A stretch of 64,000 bases of DNA from Thermoanaerobaculia bacterium (GCA_963816185.1 CAWFJJ010000030.1:416001-480000), one strand, 5' to 3'; counted from the stretch's first letter, positions 2,224 through 31,910 are shown. Notes: generated by a model from the letters alone, not told the origin. A program made the numbers and translations.

Positions 2224-3569
2224 GCGAGAGGTCGAGCCCGGTGCCAGCGCGACGGCGTGAGAAGCGCACGGGCGATCGCGCGCGCCCACATCGAGAGGGA
2301 AGAAAGAAGATCGGCGAAGGTGACTGCGGGAACTTCGGGGGGATACCCGACGCGGGCGCGGAGCGCGACGAGCGAGAGCCACTCGAAGAGCAACGCAGAT
2401 TTTCCTAGAAGTGAAAGGGCGAAGAGCCAAGCGAGGAGCGCGATGGGTCGCGCCGACGCGCCTGCACCCCCGGCCGCGGCTTCGCCGCTTGCCCGCGCCG
2501 CGGCGGACCACGCGCCACTCGAAGAAAACACCACCATGACGACATCCGAAGCGATCGCAAGAAACGCGAGGGCCAAAAGCACGAAGAGTCGTGGCCTCAG
2601 CCAGAGATCGCACGCGAGAACGAACGCCCCTTTCGGGCTCCTCGCCGCGAGCCGCAGGAGGTCGCCGAAGCCCGTCGCGAGCAGCTTCAGATGCCCGCCG
2701 AGCCACCGCGCGCGCGATCGCGCCATCGCGGCGGCCGCGGGAGCAGGCTCGTCGAACGCGACGGGCGACTCGAGCGCGCGGACGCGGACGCCGTTCGCGA
2801 GAAGAGCGAGCGTCGCCTCCGAGTCCTCAGCCGTCGTCCGCGTCGCGACGGCCGGACCGACGCGAAAGGCCCGCGGTGAGAAGCCCATGGCTTTTCCGCG
2901 CAGCCGCACGGGCAGGCCCTCCGCGTCGCGCGCGAGATCGTCCGCGAGCGCGGCTACGAGAGAGAGCGCCTCGACGCGCGGCGCCCCGGCCCCGGGGACT
3001 CCAGCGGGCCTTACGGGCAGCTGGAATACCTCGGTCTCGTCGGGAACGTTCAGGTCGAGGAAGAATCCGTCCGGGAGGCGCATGTCGGCGTCGAAGACGA
3101 GGATGAACGAGTAATCGTCAAGCTGGTCGCCTAGTTGCTCCTCAAGAAATGCCAGCGCATGCCCTTTCGCAGGACCGGGGATCTTCTTAGAAAGGTATTT
3201 GACTCCGTCCGCTTTGAGGCGCGCCTCGGCACCCGGGTCGGGGCCGTCGAGGAGGACGAGAACGTCGACTCCAAAGGGGATTGCGCTCGCCTCTGCGCCT
3301 GCTGCGCTCTTCACCTTCGAAGAAATCTCTTTCTCGGACTCTCTCGTTCCCTCCCCCTCTCTTCTGAGATCTCCGGCGAGGTCCCCCACCCGCGCGCCCT
3401 CGGCGCGTGACGGGATCACGGCGAGGATCTTCCGGGGGGCGCGGCCGGGCGAAACCGGCGGCGCGCCTGCGCGCGGCGCCGCGAGGCGCCGCCACCTCAG
3501 GAAAGCGTCGTACGCGGGCCCCGCCGCCCACGCGGCGAGGAGACCGCACCCTGTCGTGAGGATGTCCAC
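2220..3569 (-). CDS. Membrane glycosyltransferase family 2
   Basis: VIPSRAE, KGHAL, FDAD, AEDSE and RARW (QxxRW-like) motifs plus C-terminal TM helices. Confidence 0.85.
   Translation of the reverse strand: MDILTTGCGLLAAWAAGPAYDAFLRWRRLAAPRAGAPPVSPGRAPRKILAVIPSRAEGARVGDLAGDLRREGEGTRESEKEISSKVKSAAGAEASAIPFGVDVLVLLDGPDPGAEARLKADGVKYLSKKIPGPAKGHALAFLEEQLGDQLDDYSFILVFDADMRLPDGFFLDLNVPDETEVFQLPVRPAGVPGAGAPRVEALSLVAALADDLARDAEGLPVRLRGKAMGFSPRAFRVGPAVATRTTAEDSEATLALLANGVRVRALESPVAFDEPAPAAAAMARSRARWLGGHLKLLATGFGDLLRLAARSPKGAFVLACDLWLRPRLFVLLALAFLAIASDVVMVVFSSSGAWSAAARASGEAAAGGAGASARPIALLAWLFALSLLGKSALLFEWLSLVALRARVGYPPEVPAVTFADLLSSLSMWARAIARALLTPSRWHRARPLA
2398..3374. repeat. Cluster 1 of dispersed AT-rich motif (inside the GT2 gene)
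   Basis: Reverse copies gattttcctagaagtgaaa (2398-2416) and gatcttcttagaaaggtat (3180-3198); forward copy ttcaccttcgaagaaatc (3310-3327); weaker copies near 3138 and 3358. Confidence 0.7.
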
Positions 3570-3612
3570 GCGGCCCGCATCGTAGCGGACGAGAGGGCCG
3601 CGTGTCGGAGGG

Positions 3613-5868: not shown

Positions 5869-5938
5869 GCGTATTCCTTTCGTAGATCCCGCGGCGATTC
5901 TAGAATGGCGATTGGCGCGCCGTATTGATGCGAACGCA

Positions 5939-6772: not shown

Positions 6773-8547
6773 GCCGCCAGCGTCTTCGCTCCCGCCGCGA
6801 GCGTCTTCTTGACGAGGTCGACGACGCGGTCCGGCGCGATCTCGGCAGCTTTTCTCTCGCGACGGGTGGAGACCTCGACGACACCCTTCGCGAGGCCCTT
6901 GCCGCCCACGACGACACGCACGGGGAAGCCGATCAGATCCAGATCTTTGAACTTCACGCCCGGACGTTCGTCGCGATCGTCGTAGAAGACCTCGACCCCG
7001 GCAGCCTTGAGGCCTTCGTAGAGCCTGTCCGCCGCCTCGAGAACGTGGGCGTCGCGCTGCAGCGCAGCCACGACGCAGGCGAACGGCGCGAGCGGCAACG
7101 GCCAGATGATTCCGAGCTCGTCGTGGTTCTGCTCGATGGCCGCCGCCACCGTACGGCCGAGGCCGAGTCCGTAGCAGCCCATCGTGAGCGGCACCATCTT
7201 CTGGGCCTGGTCGGCGACCTCGCATTTCATCGCCTCGGAGTATTTCGTTCCGAGCTTGAAGATGTGGCCGACCTCGATGCCACGCCTGATTCTCAGCATG
7301 CCCTTGCCCGTCGGCGAGGGATCGCCCTCTCGCGCGGTCGCAACCTCGACGACGCCCTTGAAGGAAGGCAGCGACATCACGTCGCGCGAAATGCTCACGC
7401 CGGAGTGATGGAGCCCCTCGCGGTTGGCGCCGCACCAGAGGTTCGCGCCGTGTTGGAGGGAACGGTCGACGAAGAGAGGAATCGGATTCTCTTCGAAAGG
7501 AAGAAGACCCAGCGGCCCCACAAATCCGGGCCTCGTCCCGGATACCTTTCTAAGAATCTCCTCCGAAACCAGCTTCACGTGAAGAGCAGCGATCGCTTTC
7601 GGAAGCTTGACCTCGTTGATGTCGAGATCACCACGGATCAGGACGGCCGCGAGCCGCGCCTTGCCGTCCGTACCCACCGCTTCGTAGATCATCGTGTTGA
7701 CGATGCGCGCCGGCGTCGTCCCGAGGTGCTTGGCCTGCCCGTCGGTCGTCGTGATCCCCGGCGTCGGCGCGTTCGCCTCGCCGAACGGCTTCGCCTCTTC
7801 CCCCGCCCACGGCTCCGGCAACGGAGCCGTGACGGCCTTCTCGATGTTGGCGCCGTAGTCGCCCGCCTCCGAGAAGACGAGGGCGTCTTCGCCGGTGTCC
7901 GCCACGACCATGAACTCCTGCGAAGCCGAGCCGCCGATCGCGCCCGAGTCGGCTTCCACGAGCGCGTACTCGAGGTTGCAGCGCTCGAAGATGCGCCGGT
8001 ACGCCGCGTCCATCTTCCGGTAGTGAAGGTCGAGGCCCTTCTCGTCCACGTCGAACGAGTACGCGTCCTTCATGAGGAACTCACGGCCGCGCAGGAGGCC
8101 GAAGCGCGGGCGGATCTCGTCGCGGAACTTCGTGCGGATCTGGTACAGGTTGAACGGGAGCTGCCGCCAGGACGTGACGGAGCGGCGCACCATGTCCGTG
8201 ACGGCCTCCTCGGCCGTCGGCGCGAGCGCGAACTCGCCGCCCTTACGGTCCTCGAGGTGGAAGAGGATCCCGTCGTCCACGTAGCGCTGCCAGCGACCCG
8301 ATTCCACCCAGAGCTCTTTCGGCTGCAGGATCGGGAGGTCGACCTCCATCGCGCCGGTCGCATCCATCTCCTCCCGCACGATGTCGATCATCTTCTTGAG
8401 CGACCGGAATCCGAACGGGGTGAACGAGTAAATGCCCGCGGCAAGCCTGTGGATGAGCCCCGCGCGATAGAGGAGCTGATGTGAGACGACCTCGGCATCG
8501 CCCGGCACCTCACGGAGCGTCACGAGAAACGACTGGGACCAGCGCAT
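6769..8547 (-). CDS. proS: Proline--tRNA ligase with editing (INS) domain
   Basis: SHQLLYRAG, LAPTAEE, KFRDEIRPRFGLLRGREFLMKDAYSF, GIEVGHIFKLG, GCYGLG, anticodon domain DDRDERPGVKF. Confidence 0.97.
   Translation of the reverse strand: MRWSQSFLVTLREVPGDAEVVSHQLLYRAGLIHRLAAGIYSFTPFGFRSLKKMIDIVREEMDATGAMEVDLPILQPKELWVESGRWQRYVDDGILFHLEDRKGGEFALAPTAEEAVTDMVRRSVTSWRQLPFNLYQIRTKFRDEIRPRFGLLRGREFLMKDAYSFDVDEKGLDLHYRKMDAAYRRIFERCNLEYALVEADSGAIGGSASQEFMVVADTGEDALVFSEAGDYGANIEKAVTAPLPEPWAGEEAKPFGEANAPTPGITTTDGQAKHLGTTPARIVNTMIYEAVGTDGKARLAAVLIRGDLDINEVKLPKAIAALHVKLVSEEILRKVSGTRPGFVGPLGLLPFEENPIPLFVDRSLQHGANLWCGANREGLHHSGVSISRDVMSLPSFKGVVEVATAREGDPSPTGKGMLRIRRGIEVGHIFKLGTKYSEAMKCEVADQAQKMVPLTMGCYGLGLGRTVAAAIEQNHDELGIIWPLPLAPFACVVAALQRDAHVLEAADRLYEGLKAAGVEVFYDDRDERPGVKFKDLDLIGFPVRVVVGGKGLAKGVVEVSTRRERKAAEIAPDRVVDLVKKTLAAGAKTLAA
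7485..7558. repeat. Cluster 2 of dispersed motif (inside proS)
   Basis: Reverse copy gattctcttcgaaaggaag (7485-7503) followed by forward copy atacctttctaagaatc (7542-7558). Confidence 0.65.
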
Positions 8548-8584
8548 AGGCGCGCGAGAATAGCAGGCGGTAGACTGCGCCCCC
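8548..8584. promoter_or_regulatory. Putative bidirectional -10 promoter giving leaderless proS and aminotransferase mRNAs
   Basis: 37 bp between divergent start codons; TATTCT (minus, 8557-8562) 9 nt before ATG and TAGACT (plus, 8571-8576) 8 nt before GTG; no SD. Confidence 0.5.
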
Positions 8585-9901: not shown

Positions 9902-9923
9902 CTCCAGGGGCTACACTCCGGGG

Positions 9924-10583
9924 GTGGAGCAGGACAAGAAGTCCGAGAAGAGCCGGGCGGCCATCCTCGAGGCGGCGCTGGATCTTTTCTCGAGCCAGGG
10001 TTACCGAGGCACGAGCATCCGTGAGATCGCACAGGCCGCCGGTCTGTCGACGGGAAACGTATACCACCACTTCCCCGACAAGGAGACGATCTTTCAGACG
10101 GTCCTCGCGCAGTATTGGAAGGCGATCGAGAGCCCCGACTTTCCGTTCAACCGGGCGCTCGCGTCGGGGACGTTCCCCGACAACCTCGAAGAGCTGGCCT
10201 TTGCCGCCCGCGACAGCGTGCGCCAGTACCGCAAGTACGTCGCGCTCATCTACGTCGACGTCGTCGAGCTCTCGGGCAGCCACATCCGCAAGTTCTATTC
10301 GGAGATGGCCTCACGCTTCGAGCGTTTCGTCGCGACGCATGGCCACGAGTCCTTCGCGCGAAACCTCAGGCCGGGCGTCCCGCCCACGACGGCCGTCATG
10401 CTCGCGAGCCGCATCTATCTCCAGTACTTCGCCGTCGAGATCGTGTTCGGCGTGCCGAACGAGTTCGGCAAGAACACGGATATCGTCGTGAAGGAGATCG
10501 CCGACATCCTCCGCCACGGGATGATGAAAGAGCCGGGGCTCGTGTCGGCCGCGGCGCCATCCCTCGCCCGCGCACGGCGCTGA
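9924..10583 (+). CDS. TetR/AcrR family transcriptional regulator
   Basis: HTH ILEAALDLFSSQGYRGTSIREIAQAAGLSTGNVYHHFPDKE; TACACT 6 nt upstream of GTG suggests a leaderless mRNA. Confidence 0.93.
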   Translation: MEQDKKSEKSRAAILEAALDLFSSQGYRGTSIREIAQAAGLSTGNVYHHFPDKETIFQTVLAQYWKAIESPDFPFNRALASGTFPDNLEELAFAARDSVRQYRKYVALIYVDVVELSGSHIRKFYSEMASRFERFVATHGHESFARNLRPGVPPTTAVMLASRIYLQYFAVEIVFGVPNEFGKNTDIVVKEIADILRHGMMKEPGLVSAAAPSLARARR

Positions 10584-10587
10584 GCCT

Positions 10588-11451
10588 TCAGCTCTTGGGA
10601 TCCTTCGAACCGAAGAACCGCCTCACCCGAGGCCAGAAGAGGTCGGGACGCTCGAGGTAGACGACGTGTCCCGAGCCCTCGATCTCTTCGTAGCGCGCGT
10701 GCGGAATGACGGCGGCGATCTTTCGCTGCTGGGAAGGGGGGATCGCGCGGTCCTCGGCGCCCGCGAGGACGAGCACCGGGCACGGGATCGCAGCGTAGCC
10801 GGGCGCATTCGCTTCGAGAGACGCGAAGAACGGGTCCTGCGCCTCGGTGAGACGCACGAGCGCCTCGATGCGATCCCGGTAGCGGTCGCGGAAGTTGCCA
10901 CGCATCGACTCGAGCTTCTCCCCGACGCGCGTCACGAACACCTCGCCGAAGATCTTCTCGTAGAGGTATCGGGTGTAGAGGTCGAAGAGGTCCGGTCCGC
11001 CCCGGTAGAAGCGCAGCGACAGGTCCTGGTACATCGAGAACAGCGTCTCTTTCGTGAGCAGGATTCCCGAGAGCGTGAGCGTGTGCAGCCGGTCGCCGTG
11101 GAGACGCCCGAAGTCCGCAGCGACGAAGCCCCCGTACGACACCCCGACCGCGTGGAGGCGGCCGAGAGCCGCGCAGTCGAGGATTCCCGCGAGCGCGTCG
11201 GCGAACGCGGGAATCGCTCCTCCACGCACCTCGGCGTCGTCGGACGAACCCTGCCCGAGGTAGTCGAAGAGGAGGACGTCATACGTGGGCGTCAGCTCCG
11301 GAAGGAAGGAGAGCCAGCTCTTCGTCGACATTGCGAGGCCGTTCAGGAGGCAGACCGTCTCGCGCCCGCCCGTGCCGTGCAGCTCCCAGTGATAGGCGTG
11401 GCCGCCGGAGACGTGGCGGCCTTCCCGGAGCTGAGGCGCGGCGGCGCTCAA
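10588..11451 (-). CDS. Alpha/beta hydrolase
   Basis: LNGL, DYLGQGSS, nucleophile elbow GVSYGG, GAEDRAIP, GSGHVV; TTG start overlapping the upstream stop. Confidence 0.88.
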   Translation of the reverse strand: MSAAAPQLREGRHVSGGHAYHWELHGTGGRETVCLLNGLAMSTKSWLSFLPELTPTYDVLLFDYLGQGSSDDAEVRGGAIPAFADALAGILDCAALGRLHAVGVSYGGFVAADFGRLHGDRLHTLTLSGILLTKETLFSMYQDLSLRFYRGGPDLFDLYTRYLYEKIFGEVFVTRVGEKLESMRGNFRDRYRDRIEALVRLTEAQDPFFASLEANAPGYAAIPCPVLVLAGAEDRAIPPSQQRKIAAVIPHARYEEIEGSGHVVYLERPDLFWPRVRRFFGSKDPKS

Positions 11452-12278
11452 CGCATGCCCGCGGGGTGGGCTTCCCCCGCGGTCCGCTCGAGGAACCTCT
11501 CGGCGATGTGGAGGAACTCGCCTTCCCTTTCCACACTCACGGCGTGCCCGGCGCCGGGCACGACCACGAGGTCCGCACCCGGAATCGCGCGGGCCACCGC
11601 CTCCGTGCGCCCGAGCGGCATCGCGGAGTCGTGCTCCGCGGCGACGACGAGAACCGGGCAGCTGATCTTCGAAAGGTACGGCTTGAGGTCCACCGTCACG
11701 AGCGCCCGGAGCAACCCGTCCAGGCCGGCGAACCATGCTTGCGGCAGGAGGCCGACCTGCCCCCGCCGGGCCGCGAGCTCGTCCCGGTGGGCTTCCTGCC
11801 ACGCGGGCGAATACGCGATCGCCACGATCTGGTCGTAGACCTTCGTCCGATCGCCTCCCGCGAGGGCCTCCCTCACGGCGGCCGCCAACGCCTCGCTCCC
11901 CTCGCCCATGCTCCCGTCGACGGCGTCGGTGACGGTGGCGGCCAGGACCGACGTGACGCGCCCGGGATGGAGCGCCGCGAGGAGAAGGCCGACGTACGCG
12001 CCGAACGAGGCGGCGACGACGTCCACGCGGGGGATCGACAGAGCATCGAGGAGCCGGACGAGATCCTCCGCGTGACCTTCCATGCGCTCGGGCGGAACCC
12101 CGGGCGAAAGGAGCTGACCCCGGAAGTCGCATCGGATGACGCGGTGGCGTTCGGCGAGCCGCCTCGCGACGGGCTCCCAGGCGCCGAAGGACATCATGCC
12201 GCCGTTCAGAAGCAGCAGAGGGCGACCCTCTCCGTCGACGCGGTGAGCCAGCCCTCCGGAAGCCCCCGCCGCGCTCAT
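11448..12278 (-). CDS. Alpha/beta hydrolase (PcaD-like fold)
   Basis: LLNGG, DFRGQLLS, AASFGA elbow, HDSAMP, GAGHAV. Confidence 0.88.
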   Translation of the reverse strand: MSAAGASGGLAHRVDGEGRPLLLLNGGMMSFGAWEPVARRLAERHRVIRCDFRGQLLSPGVPPERMEGHAEDLVRLLDALSIPRVDVVAASFGAYVGLLLAALHPGRVTSVLAATVTDAVDGSMGEGSEALAAAVREALAGGDRTKVYDQIVAIAYSPAWQEAHRDELAARRGQVGLLPQAWFAGLDGLLRALVTVDLKPYLSKISCPVLVVAAEHDSAMPLGRTEAVARAIPGADLVVVPGAGHAVSVEREGEFLHIAERFLERTAGEAHPAGMR

Positions 12279-12284
12279 TTCGAA

Positions 12285-14036
12285 TCAGTCCGAAGACGAA
12301 GAAGAAGAGAAAGACGAAGACTTCTTAGAAAGGTAAGAGGAGAGGAGGTCCCCCTTGACGACTTTCCCGTAGGGCGTGCGCGGGAGGCTCTCGACGAAGA
12401 CGAAATCCCGTGGGACCTTGTACTTCGCGAGGCGCGCCTCGACGAATGCGGCAAGCGCGCCGCCGCTTCGAAGAAATCCCCTTCGCCTTCCTCTTCCCCT
12501 TCAAGAAATCTTCTCTTCTCTTTCTTCTTTGCGGCGAACGACGAATGCGACGCCGACCTCTCCCCACTTCTCGTCCGGCACGCCGACGACCGCGACGTCC
12601 TTCACGCCCGCGTGCTGGAAGAGCACCCCTTCGACCTCGGCCGGATAGACGTTGACGCCGCCCGAGATGAACATGTCCTTCTTCCGGCCCGCGATCGTGT
12701 AGAAGCCGTCGGCGTCGCGCTTGGCGAGATCGCCCGTATGGAACCAGCCCTCCGCGTCGAGCGGCGGCGGCCGTGGCCTCGGGGTTCCGGAAATAGCCCT
12801 GGCAGACGTGAGGCCCGCGCAGGAGAAGCTCCCCGATCTCGTCCGTGCCCGCCTCGCGGCCGTCCTCGAGGAGGAGCCTCGCCTGAGTGAACATGAGCGG
12901 CTTGCCGATGGAGCCGGCCTTCCTCACGGATTCCTCGGCCGTCATCGCGAAACAGTTCACGCCCACTTCGGTCAGGCCGTAGCCCTGCTTCAGGACGACT
13001 CCTCGCGCCTGCCACGCCTCGATCAGATCGAGGGGCAGCGGAGCTCCCCCGCTGGCGAACCAGCGGACGCTCGAGAAGTCCGCGCCGGCGAATCCCTTCG
13101 CCTCGCGCAGCATCCGGAAGATCGTCGGAACGCCGAGCACGACGGTGCAGCGCTCGCGCGAGATGGTCGCGAGGATCTCTTCCGCGTCGAAGCCGGCGTG
13201 CAGCACGATGGTCCCGCCGATCGCGAAAATCGGCGTGAGGAACGCACCGAGCCCGCCTGCGTGGTAGAGCGGCGTGAAGATCGGGCTGACGTCGTCCTCG
13301 CGGAGCTGCCAGGAGACGGCGGTGTTCACCGCGTTCCATGCCACCATGCGGTGCGGCACCATCACGCCCTTCGGCTTGCCGGTCGTGCCCGAGGTATAGA
13401 GAAGGCAATAGAGATCCTCGGGCGACGGGACGAGAGAAGACGAAGATTCTGCAGCGGCGCCGGTAGGCGCCGCTGGAAGAGGAAGAGAGACGGAACAGAG
13501 GATTTCTTCGAAGGTGAATGAAGGAGAGTGCGCGCCCGCCGGCGGTGCGGTTGGCGCGGCCGGGGAGTCAAGTGCCGCGCCTTTCGAATCTCTTACCCTT
13601 CTAAGCAGGTCCTCTTCGGACCTCCCGGCGCGCTCCGCCGGCTCGTCGAGCGCGACGGGTTCCCGTGTTCCCCTTTTCTAAGCAAATCTCTGACCTTCTC
13701 TTCGAACCCGGCTCCGTAGATCAAGGCCTTCGGCTGCGCGTCTTCGAGGATTCCCGCAAGCTCCCCCGCCGTCTGCCGCGTGTTGAGCGGCACGAGCACG
13801 ATGCCCGTCTTGGCGCACGCGAAGAAGACGTCGAGGAACTCGACGCGGTTGTGGGCGAGAAGCGCGACCCGGTCGCCTTTCCTCAGGCCGAGGCCTTCGG
13901 TGAGCGCACGCGCCGCCGCTTTCGCGCGGGCATCCATCTCCGAGTAAGAGAACCGCCGCCCGGTTGCGACCTCGACGAGCGCCGTCTTGGACGGTGCGAG
14001 GCGCGAGCGCTCGCCGAGGACGTCGCCGGAAATCAC
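12285..14036 (-). CDS. Acyl-CoA ligase (AMP-binding, FadD/MenE-like); frame-disrupted in this sequence
   Basis: Pieces in different frames: GLRKGDRVALLAHN, LLYTSGTTGKPKG, QGYGLTE, GWFHTGD, GRKKDMFISGGVNVYPAEVE, LAKYKVPR, LPRTPYGKV; disruptions near 13660, 12770 and 12450-12520. Confidence 0.85.
12319..12510. repeat. Cluster 3 of dispersed motif with purine-rich low-complexity flanks
   Basis: Reverse gacttcttagaaaggtaag (12319-12337); forward cttcgaagaaatc (12466-12478) and ttccccttcaagaaatc (12494-12510). Confidence 0.7.
13501..13688. repeat. Cluster 4 of dispersed motif
   Basis: Reverse gatttcttcgaaggtgaat (13501-13519); forward ttacccttctaagcaggtc (13593-13611) and ttccccttttctaagcaaatc (13668-13688). 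Confidence 0.75.
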
Positions 14037-15007: not shown

Positions 15008-15020
15008 GATTCCCCGAAGA

Positions 15021-19587: not shown

Positions 19588-19622
19588 GTCGTCCTCCTCG
19601 TTGCCGCGTGTGCGGCAAGATC

Positions 19623-19675
19623 CCGAACAGTCGGTATGTTTTTGTAAACTAGCGCCGATCGCGCCAGGGTGTCAA
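19623..19675 (-). promoter_or_regulatory. Sigma70-type promoter and candidate TetR operator for the TonB-receptor operon
   Basis: Minus strand TTGACA (19675-19670), 18 bp spacer, TAGTTT (19651-19646); inverted repeat CCGA-N4-TCGG at 19623-19634 just downstream. Confidence 0.5.
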
Positions 19676-19697
19676 GCGGAAGATGGGGAAAAGAGGA

Positions 19698-19867
19698 GAT
19701 TTCTTAGAAGGGGCATAGGGCGCGCCCGGCGGCGAGCCTCGAGGCGCCAGGTTCCCGGCGCGCCGCGCGTCTATTCACCTTCGAAGAAAAGGTGCCTCTC
19801 CCGGGCTCCTGAGCCTTCTCGCCGCGCTCGGGCCGCCCCCGCGTCCTATTCACCCTCTAAGAAAATC
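19698..19867. repeat. Cluster 5 of dispersed motif (intergenic, three near-consensus copies)
   Basis: Reverse gatttcttagaaggggcata (19698-19717); forward tattcaccttcgaagaaaa (19772-19790) and tattcaccctctaagaaaatc (19847-19867). Confidence 0.85.
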
Positions 19868-19879
19868 TTCTCTCCTCTC

Positions 19880-21742
19880 TCACCGGCGGTCGCGCGCGCG
19901 GACCCGTCCCCTGTTCGCGAGCTTTTCGGTGAGCTGGAGATTCCGTCGGATCTGCTCGAGCATCTTCGCCTCGAGGCCGCGCCCGGCCGAGACGCGCGTG
20001 TCGCGTCGCTTCGCCCGCCCGAACGCCTGCCGCGCGGCGCGTGCGTCTCCGAGAGCGAGGTACGCGAGGCCGAGGTGCGTGAGAGAGGTCGGCGTCTCGC
20101 CGAGGTCCGTCGCGCGCCGCAGGCACTCCACGGCGCGGTCGTACTCGCGCCTCTTGTAGTGCACCCACCCCTTGGCCGCGAGCGGGAACTGCCGCATCTC
20201 CTTCGGCGAGAGCTTGAGCGAGAGGTCCGCGAGATCCAGCGCGGCGTCGAGGTCCTCTCCCATCTCCGCGAGCGCCGTGGCCCGCTGAAAGTACGCGATC
20301 GAGCGCGCATAGTTGGATTTCACGGCCCCGAGCATCTCCTCGGCGACGCGGCTTCCCTCGCGGAACTTGCCCTGGGCCTTGAGAGCCTCGAGAAGCGTCG
20401 TGTACGCGGCGGCGGCGACCATCTCGCCCGGCGCGCGGGAGAGGACGCGTCGCGTCGTGGCGACCGCGTCGGACGTCTTACCCACGGCCGAGCACAGGAG
20501 CGCATGCGCGATGAGGAGCGTGGGGTTCTCCGGGTCGAGCTTCAGCGCGCGGCGGTAGAGCGCCATCGCCTTCTGCGGGTCGCGCCCCGCGGCGGCCTCG
20601 GCCCTGCGGGCGAGCTGGGCCGCCTCCCCGGTCACCTTCGGGAGCGCCCGCGCCCCGGAGGGCGCGAGGAGCTTCGACGCCTCCTGGTACTCGATGCGGT
20701 TCGGGTTCAGCTCGAGCGCCGACTGGAACCGTTCGGCCGCCTTCTGCGTCCATCCGCGGTCGAGATAGCAGAGGCCGAGCTGGTAGAGCGCGTCCTCGTC
20801 GTCGGGATCCAGGCGAACAGCCTTCTGAAACGCCTCGATCGCCTCGGTGAGCCGGCCGCGCTCGTACGCGATCGTGCCGAGGAGCGAAAACGCCTGCGCG
20901 TTCTCGTCGAGCGTGACCGCCTTCTTCAGGAACGTCTCCGCGCGCGCGAGCTGGCCCTGGAGCGCGTAGAGCGCGCCGAGCGTGAAGTGAGGCAGGAAGG
21001 CGTCCGGCCGGACCGCGACCGCCTCCTTGAGGACCTCGAGCGCGCGATCCGTGCGGCCCGCCTCGTTCTCGAGGACTCCCACGTACACGAGCGCGTCGAA
21101 GTGCCTCGGCTCCTTCGCGAGAACGGCGTGCAGCATCGCGGCCGCGCGGTCCGTCTCCCCCTCGTTGAAGTACGTCTCGCCCAGAAAGAACGCGAGGTCG
21201 GCGTTCCCTTTGTCCAGCCGGTACGCCTCCTCGAGCACCTTCAACGCCTTGTCCGGGTCGAGCGCGTAGAACGCGAACTCGGCGTCGGTGAGGAGCGCCT
21301 TGAAGCGCTCCCGCCGTTCGCCCGAGAAGCCGCCGAGCATCCGCTCCTTGCGCTCGAGGAAGCGCTCGCGCTTCTCCATCGCGGTCATGTGGTGGTCGAC
21401 GCGCGTCTCCCAGAGGTCGAGCAGCTCCTCCTCGACGAGGAGACCCTTCCTCTCGAGGAGGTCCTTGAGAGCCAGGAGCCCGGTCTGGGCGACGAAGCCG
21501 TTCTTCTCCTGCCGGTTCAGAGCGTCGAGGAGCATCTTCAGCGTCTCGGCGCTTCGCTTGACGATCTCCTCGAGGATGCTGACGCGCTCGAGGAGGTGCT
21601 CGTCCATCGAGACGCCCTCCTCCTGCGGCGTCCCTTCCTCGTACGCCTCGGAGGCTCCCGAGACGACGAGGAGCTTGCTCTGGCACCTGAGGCAGTACTC
21701 GCGATCGAGCTCGTTCGTCGCCCCGCAGACCTGGCAGATCAA
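19880..21742 (-). CDS. TPR-repeat protein with N-terminal zinc ribbon and coiled coil
   Basis: TTG start overlapping the hbd stop; CQVC-x10-CLRC; many TPR units such as AIEAFQKAVRLDPDDEDALYQLG. Confidence 0.85.
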   Translation of the reverse strand: MICQVCGATNELDREYCLRCQSKLLVVSGASEAYEEGTPQEEGVSMDEHLLERVSILEEIVKRSAETLKMLLDALNRQEKNGFVAQTGLLALKDLLERKGLLVEEELLDLWETRVDHHMTAMEKRERFLERKERMLGGFSGERRERFKALLTDAEFAFYALDPDKALKVLEEAYRLDKGNADLAFFLGETYFNEGETDRAAAMLHAVLAKEPRHFDALVYVGVLENEAGRTDRALEVLKEAVAVRPDAFLPHFTLGALYALQGQLARAETFLKKAVTLDENAQAFSLLGTIAYERGRLTEAIEAFQKAVRLDPDDEDALYQLGLCYLDRGWTQKAAERFQSALELNPNRIEYQEASKLLAPSGARALPKVTGEAAQLARRAEAAAGRDPQKAMALYRRALKLDPENPTLLIAHALLCSAVGKTSDAVATTRRVLSRAPGEMVAAAAYTTLLEALKAQGKFREGSRVAEEMLGAVKSNYARSIAYFQRATALAEMGEDLDAALDLADLSLKLSPKEMRQFPLAAKGWVHYKRREYDRAVECLRRATDLGETPTSLTHLGLAYLALGDARAARQAFGRAKRRDTRVSAGRGLEAKMLEQIRRNLQLTEKLANRGRVRARDRR

Positions 21743-22666: not shown

Positions 22667-23643
22667 TCAGGAGGCTGCGAGCGCGAGGCGCCAGTCGCGT
22701 GAGGCCGCGGCTCCAAGCGACACGCCGATGCCCGCGAGCGAGGCGAGACCCCAGACGAGAGGACCCGCGACCGGAACGAGGGACGCGAGGCCGAGGAGGA
22801 GGAGGCCGATGCCGAGCGCAGCCGGATCGCCGAAAAGGAGATCGCCGCGCACGGCGCGGCGCGTCGTGCGGCGGCCCAGGACGACGAACAGAGCCGCGAG
22901 ACCGAAGATCTTCGCCGCGGCGAGAACCCCGAGCAGTGCGACGCCGAGGACGAGCGCGAACCGGGCCGGCAGGGCGGAGAGCGCGAACGCCTCGAGGAAG
23001 AGGGCGGTCAGGACCGCGGTCGCCCCGAGCGCCGCGAGAAACGCGAAGCGGCCTCGAGCTTCGTCCGCCGCCCGGAGGACCGGGCGGGGCGCGAAAAAGA
23101 GGAGGCCGACGGAAACGAGGAGCCAGCACAGGAGCAGAAACAGGCGGAAGGAGAGAATGAGCGGCGAGTTCTTGCCGGACGTCAGAGGCGACGTCTCGAG
23201 CTCGGAGACGACGGCCGCTTCGAGAGCGGTGATCGTCCGGATGTCGGCCCCCGACCTGCGGCGGGAACACGCTCGTCGTCGCGTTCGAAGAGCGGCCACC
23301 GGGGATTTCTTCGAAGGTGAGAGAACCGCCGACCGCAAGCACATCGCCATCGATGACGAGCGCCTCGTTTGATCGTCGCGTCCGCGCCGAGGAGGATCAG
23401 GTCGCGACGAATGTGGCCCGACACGACAGCCGTTCCTCCTCCGACGAGCACCGCGCTTCCTTCCAATTCACCTTCTAGGAAAACCTTCCTTCCGAGAGCC
23501 ACGACGTCGCCGGCGCGGATCGTTCCTTTCGGAATGGACAACGAGCCTTCCTCGGCCTTCGCGCGTGACGAGACTGCCGGAACGAGAATCAAAAGAAGAG
23601 CCAGAATCGCCCGGCTTCCGGTCGAGCGCGTCAAGCAGCTCAC
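22667..23643 (-). CDS. Membrane protein with N-terminal beta-helical (bactofilin-like) region; frameshift near 23360
   Basis: Signal-like segment, repeats GDVVALG/GSAVLVGG/RDLILLG/GDVLAVGG, then about 5 TM helices in the adjacent frame. Confidence 0.6.
23304..23485. repeat. Cluster 6 of dispersed motif (in CDS)
   Basis: Reverse gatttcttcgaaggtgag (23304-23321); forward attcaccttctaggaaaacc (23466-23485). Confidence 0.75.
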
Positions 23644-26888: not shown

Positions 26889-28537
26889 ACGCGACCTTCC
26901 GATGGAACTCCGCGCGGGCCGCGGGGCGGACGCTTCTGGCAGGCGACTCCCGCGGGCGCCTCGCCACCTTCGCGGGACTCGGCGCTCTCCTCGCGTTCAC
27001 CGGCCTGGAAACGGTCGGCCTGGAGGGTGCCCTCCGCGCCTCGCGCGCCGCCCTGGGCGAGCTGCCCGAGATCCGGCCTGCATTTCTCCTCGAGCGCCTC
27101 CTCGGGCTCGCGTTCGCGGCCGCCCTCGCCCTTGGATTCCTCGGATCGCTCACGACGGCGATCTCCACGCTCTTCCTCTCGGACGAGCTCGGCGCCCTGT
27201 GCGTCCTTCCCTTCGCGCACCGGCGTCTCGTCTTGAGGCAGGCGTTTCTCACGCTCGCCCTCGCGTCCGCGCCGGCGGTTCTCCTTTCGATCCCCGCCCT
27301 TCTCGTCGCCGCTCTCGCCACCCGCCGTCCGCTTCTCGCGTTCGCAGCGGGCGCCGTGCCGCTCGCCGGCGTGATGCTCCTCGCGGGCGCGACAGGGATC
27401 GCGGCGGCTCTCCTCCTCGTACGCCTCGTGCCCCCGAGGCGCGCCCGCCTGCTCGCGGCCTTCCTGTCGGCGACCGGCCTCGCCGCGGCCCTCGTCGGCT
27501 TCCGTGCCGCCCGGCCGGAGCGCCTTCTCGATCCGACCGAGGCTCTCGCCGTCGTGACGCGCCTGGGTGCCGTGCGCCCCTCTTCGCCGGGACTCCAACC
27601 GGCCGCGTGGGCCGCACGCGCAGCGACGCGCGGCCTCTTCGGCGACGCGGGGGGCCTCGCTCCAGGCGTTGCGCTCTTTCTCGCAGGCCTGGCCGTCTTT
27701 CTTCTCGTTCCGACCGCTCTCTGGCGCCTCCATCTCCACGTGCTCCGCGACTCGTGGCCGGGATCGGCGGCGACGGCTGGCCCGGCGGGCCGCGGCTCCG
27801 AGGCCCGTTCGCTCGGCGGGGTGCTCGTGCGCTCCGAAGCGGCGAGTCTTCTCCGCGACGCCTCGACGCCGGCGCAGCTCGGGTCGTTGGCCGCCGTGTT
27901 CCTGCTCGACCTGATGAACGTCCGGCTCCTGCCAGGGACGGACGCCGCCGCACGCGACCTCGTGGCGGGTTTGCAGACCGGCCTCTCGCTCTTCCTCGTC
28001 TCCGCGCTGTCGCTGCGCTTCGCCTATCCGTCGGTCTCGTCCGACGGCCGCGCGGCGCTCGTCCTCCGGACGCTGCCCCTCGACCCGCGGCTCCACCTCT
28101 TCGTCCGGTGGGCCGTCCGCGCCTTTCCGGCCGCGGGCGTCGGCCTCGCCCTGACCGGCGCCAGCCTGCTCGTCCTCCGGCCCGGAAAGACGATCTCCGC
28201 GCTCGCGCTCGTCGCGGCGTTCGCCGGGAGCCTCGCGATTCCGGCGCTCCACGTCGGCCTCGGCGCCCTTTTCCCGCGCTACGACGCGCCGAACGCGGTG
28301 AGCGTGGCGCTCTCCACGGGAGGACTTTTCGCCCTCGTATTCTCGACGGGGCTCTCGCTGTTCTCGACGCTCGTCGTATCCGCGGAGCTGCAGACGCTGC
28401 TCGGAACACTTCTGAAGATCCGGATGGGGCCCTTGCCGCTCCTCACTGCGTTCCTCATCCTGGCGGTGGCCGCTGCGATCGTCCCGCTGGCACTAGCCGC
28501 GCGGTCGCTCGCGACAAAAGACATCGCCATCGGGTGA
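26885..28537 (+). CDS. ABC exporter membrane subunit (about 12 TM helices)
   Basis: GTGA coupling to the ATPase; highly hydrophobic; LFLSDEL and RFAYPSVSSDG motifs. Confidence 0.8.
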   Translation: MNATFRWNSARAAGRTLLAGDSRGRLATFAGLGALLAFTGLETVGLEGALRASRAALGELPEIRPAFLLERLLGLAFAAALALGFLGSLTTAISTLFLSDELGALCVLPFAHRRLVLRQAFLTLALASAPAVLLSIPALLVAALATRRPLLAFAAGAVPLAGVMLLAGATGIAAALLLVRLVPPRRARLLAAFLSATGLAAALVGFRAARPERLLDPTEALAVVTRLGAVRPSSPGLQPAAWAARAATRGLFGDAGGLAPGVALFLAGLAVFLLVPTALWRLHLHVLRDSWPGSAATAGPAGRGSEARSLGGVLVRSEAASLLRDASTPAQLGSLAAVFLLDLMNVRLLPGTDAAARDLVAGLQTGLSLFLVSALSLRFAYPSVSSDGRAALVLRTLPLDPRLHLFVRWAVRAFPAAGVGLALTGASLLVLRPGKTISALALVAAFAGSLAIPALHVGLGALFPRYDAPNAVSVALSTGGLFALVFSTGLSLFSTLVVSAELQTLLGTLLKIRMGPLPLLTAFLILAVAAAIVPLALAARSLATKDIAIG

Positions 28538-28633
28538 CCTTCTAAGAAGATCTTCTTAGAAGGGTGAATGAGCGAGGCGCTCATGAGCAAGGCGTCGGCC
28601 TGGCAACCGGCACGGGACCTTCTAAGCAAAGAT
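28538..28633. repeat. Cluster 7 of dispersed motif: perfect 26 bp palindrome plus a third copy between convergent genes
   Basis: ccttctaagaagatcttcttagaagg (28538-28563) equals its own reverse complement; further forward copy accttctaagcaaagat (28617-28633). Confidence 0.85.
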
Positions 28634-28658
28634 ATTTGGTGCTCTTCGAACGCCGCAC

Positions 28659-29570
28659 TCAAGGGACGGCGTGTAGCGGCGGGTCGCCGCGCGCGAAGCG
28701 CGCGATCTCCTCGCACGCGAGGCGCGCCATCGCGAGGCGCGTCTCGACGGTGGCCGAGCCGAGATGCGGAAGGAGAACGACGTTGGGAAGGGAGAGCAGC
28801 CCGGCGTGAATCGCAGGCTCTTTCTCGTAGACGTCCAGGCCCGCCCCCGAAAGATGCTTCGAGTGAAGGGCCGCAACCAGCGCGCCTTCGTCCACGATCG
28901 GGCCGCGCGCGGTGTTGATCAGGATCGCTCCCTTCTTCATTCGCAGAAGCTCTTCCTCTCCGAATCTTCCGCGAGTCCCCTCGGTCAAAGGCGCATGGAT
29001 CGACAGGACGTCGAGCTTCGAAAGAAAATCTTCGAACTCCTCTTCCGTGCCATCCCTGTCGAAAGAGAGGACTCTCATCCCGAACGCCTCGCCTCGGCGC
29101 GCGGCGGCGCGGCCGATCCGGCCCATGCCGTAGATCCCGAGCGTCTTCCCCGAGAGAGAGATGCCGAGGAGCTCCTGCGGCTTCCAGCCGTCCCATGCCC
29201 TCGAGCGCGCCAGCGCCTCGCCTTCGCGAATCCGCCGCGCGACCGCGAGGATCAGCGCCCAGGCGAGATCGGCCGTGGCGTCCGTGAGGACGTCGGGCGT
29301 GTTCGTGACGAGGATCCCGCGGGATCGGCAGGCTGCGAGGTCGATGTGATCGACGCCGACCGAGTGGCTCGCGACGATTTGGACCCGCGGCGACGCGGCG
29401 AGGACCTCGGCTGTGATCGGCTCACGCGGCGTCGGAAGGAGTGCGTCGGCGTCGTGGAGGAGCGGCCACTCGGAGCGCGGCAGGTTCCCGCCGCCGGTGA
29501 CGACGGTATGCCCGGCGAGGATCTCGGTCGTCGAGGGCTCGACGAGAGGCTGACCGACGAAGACTTTCAC
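28659..29570 (-). CDS. D-isomer 2-hydroxyacid dehydrogenase (glyoxylate/hydroxypyruvate reductase)
   Basis: VGVDHID, TNTPDVLTDATAD, GIYGMGRIG, INTARG, GLDVYEKEP, PHLGSA. Confidence 0.92.
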   Translation of the reverse strand: MKVFVGQPLVEPSTTEILAGHTVVTGGGNLPRSEWPLLHDADALLPTPREPITAEVLAASPRVQIVASHSVGVDHIDLAACRSRGILVTNTPDVLTDATADLAWALILAVARRIREGEALARSRAWDGWKPQELLGISLSGKTLGIYGMGRIGRAAARRGEAFGMRVLSFDRDGTEEEFEDFLSKLDVLSIHAPLTEGTRGRFGEEELLRMKKGAILINTARGPIVDEGALVAALHSKHLSGAGLDVYEKEPAIHAGLLSLPNVVLLPHLGSATVETRLAMARLACEEIARFARGDPPLHAVP

Positions 29571-29740
29571 GGCGTCTTGAACGGGCGCACGAGAAGCCAG
29601 CCCGCGACAAAAATGCCGCCGCCGGCAAAGAACATGCGCTCCTCGTAACGGAGGTCGTTCCGCAGGAGTCCGATGGCGAGGCCGAGACCCACGAGCGCGA
29701 GGCCGACGAGCTGCAGACCTCGCCCGAGCGCAAATCTCAC
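29567..29740 (-). CDS. Small two-TM membrane protein (57 aa)
   Basis: GTGA overlaps at both ends; VRFALGRGLQLVGLALVGLGLAIG...FFAGGGIFVAGWLLV. Confidence 0.65.
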   Translation of the reverse strand: MRFALGRGLQLVGLALVGLGLAIGLLRNDLRYEERMFFAGGGIFVAGWLLVRPFKTP

Positions 29741-31910
29741 GGCACGGCTCCCGGCGGCCTGACCTCGCGCGGGCGGGATGTCACACGCACGGACACGAGA
29801 CGGTCGTCCTGCTCGATGCGGTCGAGGACCTCCCATCCCTCGAGGACGCGCCCGAACACGGTGTAGCCGCCGTCGAGGTGGGGCTGCGAAGAAAGCGCGA
29901 CGAACCACTGCGACCCGCCCGTGTCCGCTCCTGAGAGCGCCATCCCCACGGCGCCGCGCGTGTAGCGCACCGGGTTGATCTCGTCGCGAATCGCATAGGC
30001 GGGACCGCCTCTCCCTTCGCCGCGCGGGTCGCCCGTCTGGACGACGAAGTCCGGCACGACGCGGTGGATCACCAACCCGTCGAAGAACCGCTTCGCAGCG
30101 AGCGCGCGAAAGCTCTCGACCGTGAGGGGCGCGTCCTCGGCGAGAAGCTCCATTCGGAATGCGCCGCGCGCCGTCGCGACCTCCGCCTCGAAGAGCGACT
30201 CGTTCGACGCGCGCGCGACACGGTCGTAATCCTCCGTCGAGAGCCGCGTCGCAACCGGGATCGGCCGGAAGGAAGCGGCGGAAGCGCCGTATTTTTCGAT
30301 CAGGAGGCGCCGCGCCTTCTCGCGCATGACAGCGTCCGAGTCGTTCGCATGCGCGGCCACGAGGGCGTGTCCGGCCTCCCCCCGTGCCGCCGCGGCGTCG
30401 AGCGCCCCGACGGTGAAGTCCGGTTCGGCCGACTCGAACGCGCGTTCGAACGCGGCCGACCACACCCGCCTGAGTTTTGCGCTCCCTTTCTCGAGAAGCG
30501 GCGCGGCCGCATCGAGCGCCACGTCCCTCACTGCGGCGTCGCGGTCGATCAGGCCGGCGAGAAGATACGCGGAGCGCTTCGGAGAATCCTGCTTGGAAAG
30601 GGAAGCGAGGGCTGCGGCGCGGACGCGCGCGAACGGGTCGGAATGAAGGGCCGTCGCCACCTGCACGTCCAGGGCGCTCTCCCCATTCAGGAACTTGAGC
30701 GCTTCCGCAGCACCGAGCCTCAGCTCGAGTGAGTCGCTCGCGGATGCCGCATCCAGTCTCTTCGCCGCCGCCTCCGGTGCCCGCGCAGCGTCGAGGCGCG
30801 TCAGAGAGACGAGGGCCGTCTGCCCACGCCACCCCTTTCGAAGAAGGTTCTCATCGAGCGCCGCACGCGACGCGGGCGAGTCGGGCAAGACCCCGAGCAG
30901 ACGCAGGGCGGCGATTGCCACTCCGGGAAGGGGGTCGTTGGCCCGCGCGACGGCCACGTCGAGAGCGCTGCGAGTCAGCTCGTCACCGACGGAGACGGGG
31001 ATTTTCTTAGAAAATGAATGCAGCGCGGCCAAGGCCTGTACGGCAACCGAGATGTCACGCGCTCGACGCGAGGCGGATCAGGTCTCCGGTGCTCTCCTCG
31101 TCTTCGAGGATTCCCATTGCCGCGCGCGGCCCAAGCGACTTCCTCGCTCGACGGCGCAGCCGGATTCTCATGCCCCTCTCTAAGCACCGCGCGAAGCGCG
31201 GAAGGTTCCTCCTCCCCCGCGCGGAGCGCGGGAGGATCCCCGCTCCCCTTTCTGAGCACCGCGCGAAGCGCGGGCGCCGCCTCCGGCTGAGGCTTGCGAG
31301 ACAGGGCATAAACGACCGCTCGCCTGAGCGCGGGAGCAAGATCCTTCTCTCCGAACGCGGTGAGGAGCGCCGTCACCGTCCGCGCCTCGGGCTTCCGAAA
31401 GAGCGCGAGAGCGCATGCCGGCCTCGGACCGGCCGGTTTTGCGAGAGACGCGAGGAGCGCGTCCGTGGCGTCCTTCCCCCCGATCTTCCCGAGCGCCTCG
31501 GCGGCGTTCGCGGCGGTCTCGACGTCCGGGTCCCCGAGCGCCGCGACGAGAAAGCGCAGGAGGCGCGCGTCGCCCGAGAGCCCCGCGCCGAACGTGGCCG
31601 CGCGGCGCACGAGGGGCTCCGCGTCCTTCAGGAGCACCGGCAGGTACACGGACGCGTCAGGATCCTTGAGGCGGGAGACCGCGAGCGCGGTTTTCGCGCG
31701 CAGCCAGGGGTCGGGCGAGGCGGCTGCGTGGCCCGAGAGGAGCGGATCGTACGCGCGGCGGTCCTCCATGCGGAGGAGGTCCGCGAATCCGATGAGGCGC
31801 TCGCGGTACGTGCCTTTCGGCAGGCCCTTCTCGGCGCCGAATGTGACACAGCCCGCGAGGACGACGAACGCGACGAGCGCGGCGAGCGCGCGAGGGTGGG
31901 CGCTTCGCAT
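29737..31910 (-). CDS. Lipoprotein with HEAT repeats and C-terminal cyclophilin-type PPIase; frameshifts near 31040-31120
   Basis: Lipobox VLAGC; HEAT repeats (LLKDAEPLVRRAA); cyclophilin IHRVVPDFVVQTGDP, GMALSGADTGGSQWF, PHLDGGYTVFG. Confidence 0.85.
30830..31273. repeat. Cluster 8 of dispersed motif, including a 72 bp-period direct duplication
   Basis: Forward 30830-30850, reverse gattttcttagaaaatgaat (31000-31019); cccctctctaagcaccgcgcgaagcgcgg (31173-31201) repeated as cccctttctgagcaccgcgcgaagcgcgg (31245-31273). Confidence 0.7.

Follow-up and report, generated by a model that had tools for sequence, protein, structure and literature searches.

The window analysed here, a 64,000-nucleotide (nt) stretch of the genome of a Thermoanaerobaculia bacterium (G000:C30:416001-480000, G000 being the source genome), carries clusters of a motif whose unit is an oriented arm of ca. 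26 nt, and these arms face each other in convergent pairs. The same paired motif recurs throughout G000 and throughout its genus, a group of uncultured soil acidobacteria; it is real, it is undescribed as far as the literature was searched, and it belongs with the hyper-abundant genomic words that are specific to single lineages. With a probability of roughly 40%, we read the paired arms as recognition sites for a lineage-specific DNA-binding factor that would act in pairs across the interior. The original prediction, made from the sequence of the window alone, had described ca. 22 copies of a loose dispersed word, and the orientation of the arms and their convergent pairing had gone unnoticed. 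Its view that the motif is undescribed still stands, since a literature search with the motif strings gave, among the matches listed, only unrelated primers; literature joining "Acidobacteria" with "uptake sequence" concerns Neisseria only.

The G000 assembly comprises 5,088,052 bp in 30 contigs with 67% G+C, a completeness of 94.9% and a contamination of 3.4%. The nearest named records of its prolyl-tRNA synthetase (ProRS, encoded by proS) are those of uncultured Acidobacteriota metagenome-assembled genomes, followed by Thermoanaerobaculia with 52-57% identity. Arms were located with a position weight matrix built from the copies of G000 itself, using cut-offs of at least 14 bits in the window and at least 18 bits genome-wide; controls were the reversed sequence for the genome-wide scan and 100 dinucleotide-preserving shuffles for the window. 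Genes of G000 were called with our own codon log-odds model, which is crude in that some genes are missed and others are overextended through stop-free flanks, and all counts that depend on these calls (intergenic share, coding or template strand, pair placement, read-through and strand of single arms) are approximate. As a caution for annotation, open reading frames (ORFs) run on through the stop-free GA- or CT-rich flanks of the arms. Comparisons within the family (f1) relied on 63 genomes, namely 29 of the motif genus, 8 of a sister genus and 26 of 8 other genera.

Oriented arms and convergent pairing

When every copy is turned so that its core reads TTCTTMGAA, the arm takes the form RRRR(A/T)T-TTCTTMGAA-GGKGAAnRGGG with a purine-rich flank. 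The resulting logo is strongly asymmetric, with purines at positions -6 to -3, (A/T)T preceding the core and, 3' of it, G (0.59), G (0.96), K, G, A, A, n, R, G, G and G. The purine excess extends from ca. -22 to +19 around the core, the opposite strand being CT-rich. Taken by itself the core (TTCT-T-AGAA) is near-palindromic, while the whole arm is asymmetric.

Building the matrix and scanning the genome, two steps that had been proposed with the original prediction, gave 817 arms at the 18-bit cut-off as compared to 90 in the control; 816 merged arms form 445 clusters. Among neighbouring arms, 259 of the 277 convergent pairs are no more than 400 nt apart, as compared to 16 of the 270 divergent and 96 of the 247 tandem pairs, and neighbour distances of up to 200 nt number 315 when 25 are expected under a Poisson model. 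The clusters include 175 of the "><" pattern, 31 of ">><", 25 of "><<", 174 singles and 2 of "<>". Many apparent singles have a partner of lower score: of 173, 73 have a weaker convergent arm at a distance of up to 320 nt and 4 a divergent arm. Core-to-core spacing shows a floor at ca. 45 nt, a mode at 74-78 nt (ca. 76 bp), a median of 100 nt and a 95th percentile of 232 nt, the range for pairs being 45-250 bp. A weak periodicity peak at 9.25 bp depends on the 74-78 mode and on a set of kinase paralogues with arms 93 nt apart (see below). Both strands carry the extended core TTCTTMGAAGG equally, with 147 and 147 copies in G000 as compared to 6 and 10 for the control.

The pairing rule is obeyed by all eight clusters of the window. 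The sites are listed below, with a strand for single arms only.

2394..2424, + strand: single weak sense arm, core 2402-2410, 15.8 bits, within a glycosyltransferase ORF (Glyco_trans)
3176..3332: convergent pair, exact cores 3184-3192 (+) and 3316-3324 (-), spacing 132, 24.8 and 34.3 bits
7481..7564: convergent pair in proS (gene on the - strand), cores 7489-7497 and 7548-7556, 23.0 and 23.5 bits
12314..12516: cluster > < <, cores 12322, 12467 and 12499, from matrix scan and exact cores, at an AMP-binding gene
13496..13692: cluster > < <, cores 13504, 13599 and 13676, in a variable linker of the same AMP-binding gene
19687..19880: intergenic unit > < <, cores 19701, 19780 and 19855, from the stop of a TPR gene to the promoter region of a TonB-dependent receptor
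23299..23489: convergent pair, cores 23307-23315 and 23473-23481 (TTCTAGGAA), spacing 166, 29.4 and 28.8 bits
28526..28644: cluster < > <, core 28540 abutting a sense core at 28553 whose convergent partner is degenerate (TTCTAAGCA, 28620-28628)
28926..28956, - strand: single arm, core 28940, 20.1 bits, not listed originally
30823..31202: cluster < > <, cores 30837 and 31004 plus a degenerate partner (CTCTAAGCA, 31178-31186)

Excess of the core in the window and in the genome

The window has 13 copies of the exact core TTCKAAGAA, all within 3184-31012, as compared to a mean of 0.60 and a maximum of 3 in the shuffles. The excess is not confined to the window, with 624 exact cores in the 5,088,052 bp of G000. 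Most copies listed in the original prediction were found again: 20 of 22 were recovered when matrix hits of at least 14 bits were combined with the exact core at 12467, with an offset of 2-8 nt because the coordinates given there begin upstream of the core, while the remaining two are the degenerate copies at 28620-28628 and 31178-31186, which were recognised by eye. The grouping into eight clusters and the presence of copies within ORFs, in several frames, on both strands and with rare codons were also confirmed. The 21-mer consensus that had been put forward is overly strict, matching only 2 sites with up to 3 mismatches, and the matrix scan added unlisted sites at 4270, 28940 and 38548.

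Arms are unevenly spread. The 32-64 kb part of the window has one weak arm only (38548, 16.5 bits) as compared to eight clusters in the first half, and clusters per 25 kb of G000 are over-dispersed (mean 2.3, variance 4.1), with 34 empty bins when 18 are expected. The 10-mer TTTCTTAGAA occurs in 239 copies in G000, which is 396 times the base-composition expectation and ranks it first after poly(A/T). Against a maximal-order Markov expectation the excess of a single 10-mer is small (up to 1.95-fold), as is to be expected when the shorter sub-words are themselves over-represented. Poly(A) and poly(T) 10-mers reach 1076 counts per orientation in spite of the 67% G+C, and long homopolymer runs must therefore exist somewhere in G000.

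An artefact of assembly, which the original prediction had considered, or of adapters is ruled out, as the motif also occurs in 28 further genomes of the genus and in an independently assembled contig from a soil metagenome (run X1, record 8) that spans window positions 19625-19872. Public contigs skip window positions 13400-13634 and 19679-19905, and these skips stem from relatives or paralogues. No strand-changing joint was listed for the public-run contigs, which are contigs of relatives and cannot show RNA ends, rare inversions or excisions.

Phyletic range

TTCTTMGAAGG is present in 294 copies in G000 (control 16) and in 105-392 copies in 18 other genomes of the genus (controls 2-13), whereas 12 genomes from two further families of the same order have 1-10 copies (controls 1-12); two of these 12 genomes (G019 and G024) are unpublished and the other 10 give the same result. 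A 14-mer, GATTTCTTMGAAGG, sharpens this picture within the family: it occurs in 18-122 copies in all 29 genomes of the genus, in 2-11 copies in 6 of the 8 genomes of the sister genus and in none of the 26 genomes of the 8 other genera, the reversed control being absent everywhere. Arms of the sister genus likewise form convergent pairs, for instance 80 and 102 nt apart. Arms are found at orthologous places in species with 77-91% identity to each other.

Arms inside genes and their origin by substitution

The arms found in proS, hisS and aspS arose by point substitution, in part by silent changes to rare codons, and not by insertion. In proS, arm 1 encodes EEILRKV (GAG GAG ATT CTT AGA AAG GTA) and arm 2, 59 nt further, encodes PFEEN, both being located in the region of the editing domain; the intervening segment (SGTRPGFVGPLGL) can be aligned with ProRS sequences from Thermoanaerobaculia, Gammaproteobacteria and other groups. 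When compared to outgroups, arm 1 has no insertion and arm 2 has 2-6 extra residues. The exact core is kept in 19 of 27 sequences of the genus (counted by hand on the alignment), the A/C position toggles between AGA and CGA among orthologues, and in some of these ATT CTT is changed to ATT CTC. Third codon positions carry A or T with a frequency of 0.53 in one arm and 0.69 in the other, as compared to 0.09 over the remaining 578 codons (26-27 orthologues); no other window of 6 codons equals arm 1, the highest value elsewhere being 0.40. In hisS and aspS, all four arms align with one genome of the sister genus (G050) with gap-free cores, while another (G049) aligned at only one of the four and was out of frame at both hisS arms. 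The hisS and aspS arm positions align also with one genome each of three motif-free genera, and the arms differ from other genera by point changes that include the silent TTC>TTT and TCC>TCT.

The original prediction had placed the constraint on the DNA rather than on the protein, and a constraint on the nucleic acid is supported by the use of several frames and both strands, by the islands of third-position A/T in proS and by the silent changes that make the hisS motif when compared to the sister genus. Position M of the core is A except in two frames in which A would give an in-frame TAG or TAA, and there it is C in 15 of 15 and 15 of 15 cases. Since only C replaces A at this position, the reader of the motif accepts A or C and apparently not G or T, a kind of specificity that is typical of recognition by proteins. 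For pairs lying in frame, the frame of the gene scores best in 37 of 53 interiors; the coding score per codon is 0.08 in interiors, 0.33 in flanks and -0.23 in the arms themselves.

Ser/Thr protein kinase paralogues of G000 carry two arms exactly 93 nt apart that encode LPEEFFEGEE and SFEEIPG (C24:602899, 605666, 616381, 620204; C28:51683; C23:2635, 5304). These arms surround the conserved N-lobe of the kinase, and the same pairs occur in the sister genus.

Gene context and functions of the host genes

Intergenic DNA, which makes up 15% of the genome, contains 254 of the 624 cores, the remainder being found in ORFs on both strands, in all frames and evenly along the genes. When 250 convergent pairs were placed relative to the gene calls, 57 were in frame within open ORFs, 14 were in the same phase but with a stop, 40 were between co-directional genes (16%, as compared to 8.8% for random placement), 108 had one coding flank, 21 had none and 10 were between convergent or divergent genes; random placements were in-gene in 42.5% of cases. 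Of 160 genes oriented towards a pair, 77 continue across it; the stop codon lies ahead of the first core in 55 and inside the pair or directly behind it in 28.

The 57 in-frame pairs correspond to 55 host ORFs, 15 of which belong to the translation apparatus (NCBIfam, E<=1e-20), as compared to none of 40 length-weighted random genes (one-sided hypergeometric probability of ca. 1e-4, computed by hand). These hosts are ProRS, HisRS, AspRS, LysRS, AlaRS, IleRS, PheT, GluQRS, QueA, MnmA, MnmE, RimO, RsmH, RNase R and an ABC-F factor. Another six relate to DNA maintenance or competence (DnaE, MutL, an AddA-like helicase, XseA, PcrA/UvrD and ComEA), as compared to one control (UvrA). The control genes were scanned at E<=1e-40 and the host ORFs at E<=1e-20, and functional classes were assigned by reading family names; the 1e-40 cut-off is passed by every one of the 15 translation hits and, in the DNA-maintenance group, by 5 of 6, the exception being ComEA (1.6e-33). 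The earlier statement that clusters are tied to no one function is, for in-gene pairs, contradicted by the share of translation hosts.

Independence of the two arms, folding and strand

The two arms of a pair vary independently. The choice of A or C at M in the left arm is unrelated to that in the right arm (odds ratio 1.10, p = 0.76, 248 pairs) and, for the same 248 pairs, agreement between the left arm and the reverse-complemented right arm is at chance level at every variable position. Folding of interiors gave mean z scores of -0.41 as compared to -0.24 for flanking controls outside genes, and of -0.09 as compared to -0.21 inside genes. Selection for a hairpin was rejected on the grounds that arms do not covary and interiors have no extra structure. 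Two intergenic units form long GA:CT hairpins that are better than those of shuffles (19687-19880, z = -2.7; 12314-12516, z = -2.6), and a third folded no better than shuffles (z = +0.46).

With regard to the strand, core copies in ORFs are divided between the coding strand (191) and the template strand (179), and single arms well inside strong genes number 38 and 29 by strand. A ribosome-binding site or 5' leader, suggested by GGTGA-ATG after some copies, was rejected, a good ORF start being found within 40 nt for 81 of 624 cores in sense and for 97 of 624 in antisense. Rfam gave no match at gathering score in the window. The features of an intrinsic terminator were not seen either, in that interiors are unstructured and 77 of 160 genes read through the pair, no dedicated terminator scan having been made.

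The inward-facing arm (TCACC-TTCTAAGAAATCTC) resembles the 3' end of the 16S rRNA gene and the start of the spacer that follows (TCACCTCCTTTCTAAGGGATCTC; G000:C1:445515-445585). An alignment of the arm to the reverse-complemented 16S 3' end and spacer start scores 23, a value reached by 0.5% of random 70-nt windows, most of which are, by an unchecked estimate, true arm copies; this resemblance was spotted post hoc.

Intergenic units and possible mobility

The unit of ca. 190 nt at 19687-19880 is wholly absent at the orthologous site in two genomes of the comparison (G011 and G014), and no target-site duplication is visible at this one clean presence/absence site. Interiors are unique in the genome for 168 of 195 pairs, and the 27 that match elsewhere correspond mainly to the Ser/Thr kinase paralogues with the 93-nt spacing (about half, by reading), to duplicated contigs and to a 130-nt repeat (see below).

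The original prediction had also offered a degenerate family of repetitive extragenic palindromic (REP) elements or of miniature inverted-repeat transposable elements (MITE). REP sequences moved by a REP-associated tyrosine transposase (RAYT) can be rejected, since a search with PF01797 (Y1 transposase/RAYT) gave no match in G000 (94.9% complete) and Y1 is found in only 4 of the 28 other genomes of the genus, being absent from the other 24. Nearly lost in the motif-rich genus, IS200/RAYT-like Y1 transposases are encoded by 7 of the 8 sister-genus genomes and by all 17 genomes of a motif-free genus (g17). The MITE-like part of the proposal fares differently: some intergenic units speak for it and the in-gene copies, made of native sequence with no insertion, against it. 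An autonomous element between distant convergent arms was rejected as well, 19 ORFs checked there being ordinary genes with no transposase; one such interval (G000:C1:421596-421826) holds a short ORF with a partial PIN domain next to a ferredoxin/metallo-beta-lactamase-fold gene. In viral contigs an 18-mer of the motif gave 34 single matches, which look like chance, and no multi-copy match.

Paired arms as proposed sites for a DNA-binding factor, and alternatives

A model of paired protein sites gives the best fit because it accommodates together the orientation rule, the independence of the arms, the minimum spacing, the lack of a link with the transcribed strand, the A or C at M, the lineage restriction and the conservation against codon bias. 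Each arm would then be a separate oriented site of ca. 26 bp for a sequence-specific factor limited to the genus and its sister genus. This factor is most likely a DNA-binding protein that would bind the core as a dimer, with GGTGAA on the inner side and the purine-rich tract on the outer side. The working unit would consist of two facing arms across 45-250 bp of any sequence, an arrangement to be expected if two bound copies have to meet over the interior by bridging or looping, or have to act on the DNA between them. Selection, or a constant bias, would maintain sites at any place where the surrounding sequence permits, including in essential genes, where they would be made from silent and conservative substitutions. 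Candidate roles for the bound pair are chromosome organisation, topology and control of recombination.

Several points weigh against this model. Of the three candidates named in the original prediction, a DNA code read by a protein fits best, but no candidate reader protein was found, genes not having been phyletically profiled. For a single DNA-binding domain, an asymmetric site of ca. 26 nt to which a purine-rich flank of 20 nt is added is long, and that flank is left without explanation. The helical periodicity of the spacing is not robust and is not claimed. The missing arm-to-arm covariation is compatible with a stem of RNA or single-stranded DNA made of two consensus-constrained arms, and two intergenic units do fold into hairpins (z of ca. 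-2.6), with a third at z = +0.46. The enrichment in translation genes is not predicted by protein sites and, together with the 16S resemblance, leans to a reading at the RNA level. Finally, intergenic units can be gained or lost whole, which looks like mobility, as does a subset of units with common interior sequence.

A broader version, which we consider somewhat unlikely, is that of a chromosome-wide system in which a lineage-specific factor reads ca. 400 inward pairs, which evolved base by base in intergenic DNA and in essential genes of translation and genome maintenance, and the pair itself is the signal, either for two-site uptake or recombination or as a bacterial counterpart of oriented loop anchors. 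CTCF sites at animal loop anchors are oriented and need an inward-facing partner, at a scale of kilobases to megabases and with extrusion by cohesin; the likeness is a functional analogy only. That the arms are instead a transformation or recombination signal, comparable to the DNA uptake sequence (DUS) of Neisseriaceae, the uptake signal sequence (USS) of Pasteurellaceae or the NTS of Neisseria, is unlikely. Under this explanation the uptake or processing machinery would favour arm-bearing DNA, and arms would spread by biased uptake and recombination and build up at any tolerant place, in line with their hundreds of lineage-specific copies, their equal numbers on the two strands and their low copy number in the sister genus. 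An origin within genes by substitution at tolerant positions is described for DUS and USS by Findlay and Redfield (PMC2817400), and a bias for genome-maintenance genes is reported in a preprint (bioRxiv 10.1101/2025.10.24.684340). These systems also have hundreds to thousands of lineage-specific copies on both strands, related "dialects" among sister lineages, a bias for housekeeping genes and frequent placement at the ends of genes, to which may be compared the 6 of 55 hosts in DNA maintenance or competence (1 of 40 controls) and the 62 of 160 genes reading into a pair that stop near or within it. G000 has comEC, dprA and a comEA-like gene, but comEC and dprA are near-universal (10/14 and 11/14 control genomes); as far as record titles show, the genus has no cultured member. 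The obligatory pairing is left unexplained, as known uptake sequences are, in these sources, single sites with one copy as the functional unit and with inverted pairs that form tight terminator stems, whereas the arms face strictly inward at 45-250 bp. The arm is also unlike DUS and USS in its ca. 26 nt with a purine-rich flank and in that translation genes, not maintenance genes, show the strongest functional bias. The uptake-like signal of the original prediction keeps its possible place without accounting for the pairs.

It is doubtful, too, that the arms act in the transcript, as a GA-rich arm followed by a CU-rich one that would tune translation, processing or stability, chiefly of translation genes; equally doubtful is the detail that the arms would pair together or bind the ribosome or an RNA-binding protein, the GA-rich arm being Shine-Dalgarno-like or Hfq ARN-like. 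The pairing rule does fix the order of the arms directly in any transcript, purine-rich then pyrimidine-rich, and the A/G ambiguity at several arm positions would suit G-U wobble. The translation hosts (15/55 as compared to 0/40), the pairs between co-directional genes (40/250 as compared to 8.8% at random), the hairpins of two intergenic units and the 16S score of 23 (0.5% of random windows) point the same way. Against this, arms show no compensatory changes, interiors are unstructured, the third unit folds no better than shuffles and the window has no Rfam match; single arms lack a bias for the transcribed strand (38 and 29), sense arms do not precede start codons (81/624 as compared to 97/624 in antisense), and the 16S likeness is post hoc, with the most conserved core bases (TTC, 0-2) mismatching the 16S complement. 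A non-autonomous mobile family, either MITE-like or of the kind of REP doublets forming hairpins (REPINs), with arms as terminal inverted repeats and mostly old copies with diverged interiors, is improbable. The arms (ca. 26-40 nt, inward) do have the size and orientation of such terminal repeats, with a minimum unit of ca. 45 bp, and REPINs are inverted REP doublets with a spacer (PMC3116915), present in hundreds per genome and with long vertical inheritance. The 190-nt unit missing from G011 and G014, the 27 of 195 interiors that match elsewhere and the 130-nt repeat found near an inward arm in 30 of 46 copies are also expected from mobility. However, arms of proS, hisS and aspS flank native coding sequence and arose by substitution, positions are orthologous across the genus, and viral contigs never carry more than one copy. 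The common interior and parent transposase of a MITE are not seen, 168 of 195 interiors being unique (with about half of the 27 matches due to the kinase paralogues) and the 19 ORFs between long-range convergent arms including no transposase, and the one clean gain shows no target-site duplication. REPINs are extragenic, hairpin-forming and RAYT-dependent, whereas 57 of 250 arm pairs are in frame within ORFs, proS, hisS and aspS contain pairs, a pair is read through by 77 of 160 genes, and Y1 is missing from G000 and 24 of the 28 others (17/17 in the motif-free genus have it); with regard to hairpins, the inverted doublet is there and two of three units fold better than shuffles, but arms lack covariation. 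Least probable is a by-product of biased mutation or repair that favours the word, like very-short-patch repair, and has no function of its own. Such a bias would suit the origin by point substitution, the lineage specificity and the turnover from ATT CTT to ATT CTC in proS, yet it would yield neither an oriented 26-nt word, nor strict inward pairing at 45-250 bp, nor orthologous conservation against a strong third-position G+C pressure, an argument that was also used by Xu et al. for the cyanobacterial word HIP1 (PMC5861425).

Relation to known systems

Rickettsia palindromic elements are inverted-repeat MITEs that insert within ORFs and add a peptide segment without destroying the ORF; the arms described here, in contrast, replace codons one for one and leave a native interior. 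HIP1 (GCGATCGC) is a hyper-abundant, lineage-specific word of cyanobacteria that is conserved within and between ORFs and argued to be selected, with a proposed role in chromosome or nucleoid structure and a function that is still open (PMC5861425). HIP1 is a palindromic 8-mer, a single site tied to DNA methyltransferases, while the arm is asymmetric, longer and paired. NTS, or SRM, are hundreds of oriented repeats around genes that are read by lineage-associated Ssn (GIY-YIG) single-strand nucleases modulating transformation (PMC11893778). SRMs are hairpins of ca. 30 nt that usually flank ssn, and the core of the arm is too short for a hairpin. An Ssn nuclease was rejected as reader: no small GIY-YIG protein was found in G000, whose only PF01541 match lies in a 616-aa UvrC-like frame.

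DUS, USS, REP and NTS words each led to biology, namely uptake receptors, RAYT transposases and Ssn nucleases, while HIP1 is unsolved. The present case adds Acidobacteriota, a major soil phylum with little genetics, and an architecture undescribed for the other words, in which an inward pair is required, codon bias is overridden in aminoacyl-tRNA synthetase genes and the whole is conserved across 29 or more species. A 26-nt site with a clear phyletic pattern is a testable handle for finding the reading factor, and the motif may be used as a marker for binning and classifying the genus.

Other repeats in the source genome

A second dispersed repeat of ca. 130 nt occurs in 46 copies in G000 (for example C24:143333-143477 and C25:104955-105069), none of which was seen in the window. 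It forms a 10-bp hairpin and a long composite hairpin, and 12 of 44 predicted pairs show compensatory changes, which indicates a structured RNA or single-stranded DNA element; its copies gave no Rfam match, only one sub-threshold match to a miRNA. An inward-facing arm lies within 250 nt of 30 of the 46 copies (counted by hand), and many copies are preceded by GATTTCTY, which is the left half of the arm.

Two contigs of G000 share 412 nt with 100% identity (C14:41559-41970 and C24:143158-143569) and other C14/C24 stretches with 94-98% identity, so that the bin may contain redundant contigs or a second strain.

Surroundings and conservation of the window clusters

The 2402 arm is conserved in G011 and degenerate in G014, G007, G003 and G017. 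The 3176..3332 pair, located between a malic-enzyme gene and a glycosyltransferase gene, has its cores kept in G011, G014, G003 and G007, with flanks that have diverged and contain indels. Further on, the 12314..12516 cluster overlaps both the 3' end of the AMP-binding gene, which is acyl-CoA synthetase-like, and the spacer ahead of a hydrolase gene; its arms are present in G011 and G014, with CT-rich flanks of variable length. Arms of the 13496..13692 cluster are present in G011, and the 13676 arm in G014 too. The 28526..28644 cluster is flanked by an ABC-type gene and a 2-hydroxyacid dehydrogenase gene, and that at 30823..31202 lies around the place where a HEAT-repeat gene and a cyclophilin gene meet.

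The AMP-binding gene itself (window 12325-14174, - strand) is split over several frames in G000. One extra base at 12762/12763 is lacking in the contigs of all four public runs compared, and at least this one frameshift is therefore due to an indel error in the assembly and does not mark a pseudogene. Finally, window positions 9905-19878 correspond to a block of ca. 10 kb that G000, G011 and G014 share and that G007 and G003 lack; it encodes a TetR regulator, hydrolases, the AMP-binding protein, KAS III, SDR and a TonB-dependent receptor, and its right-hand boundary falls on the arm cluster at 19701-19863.

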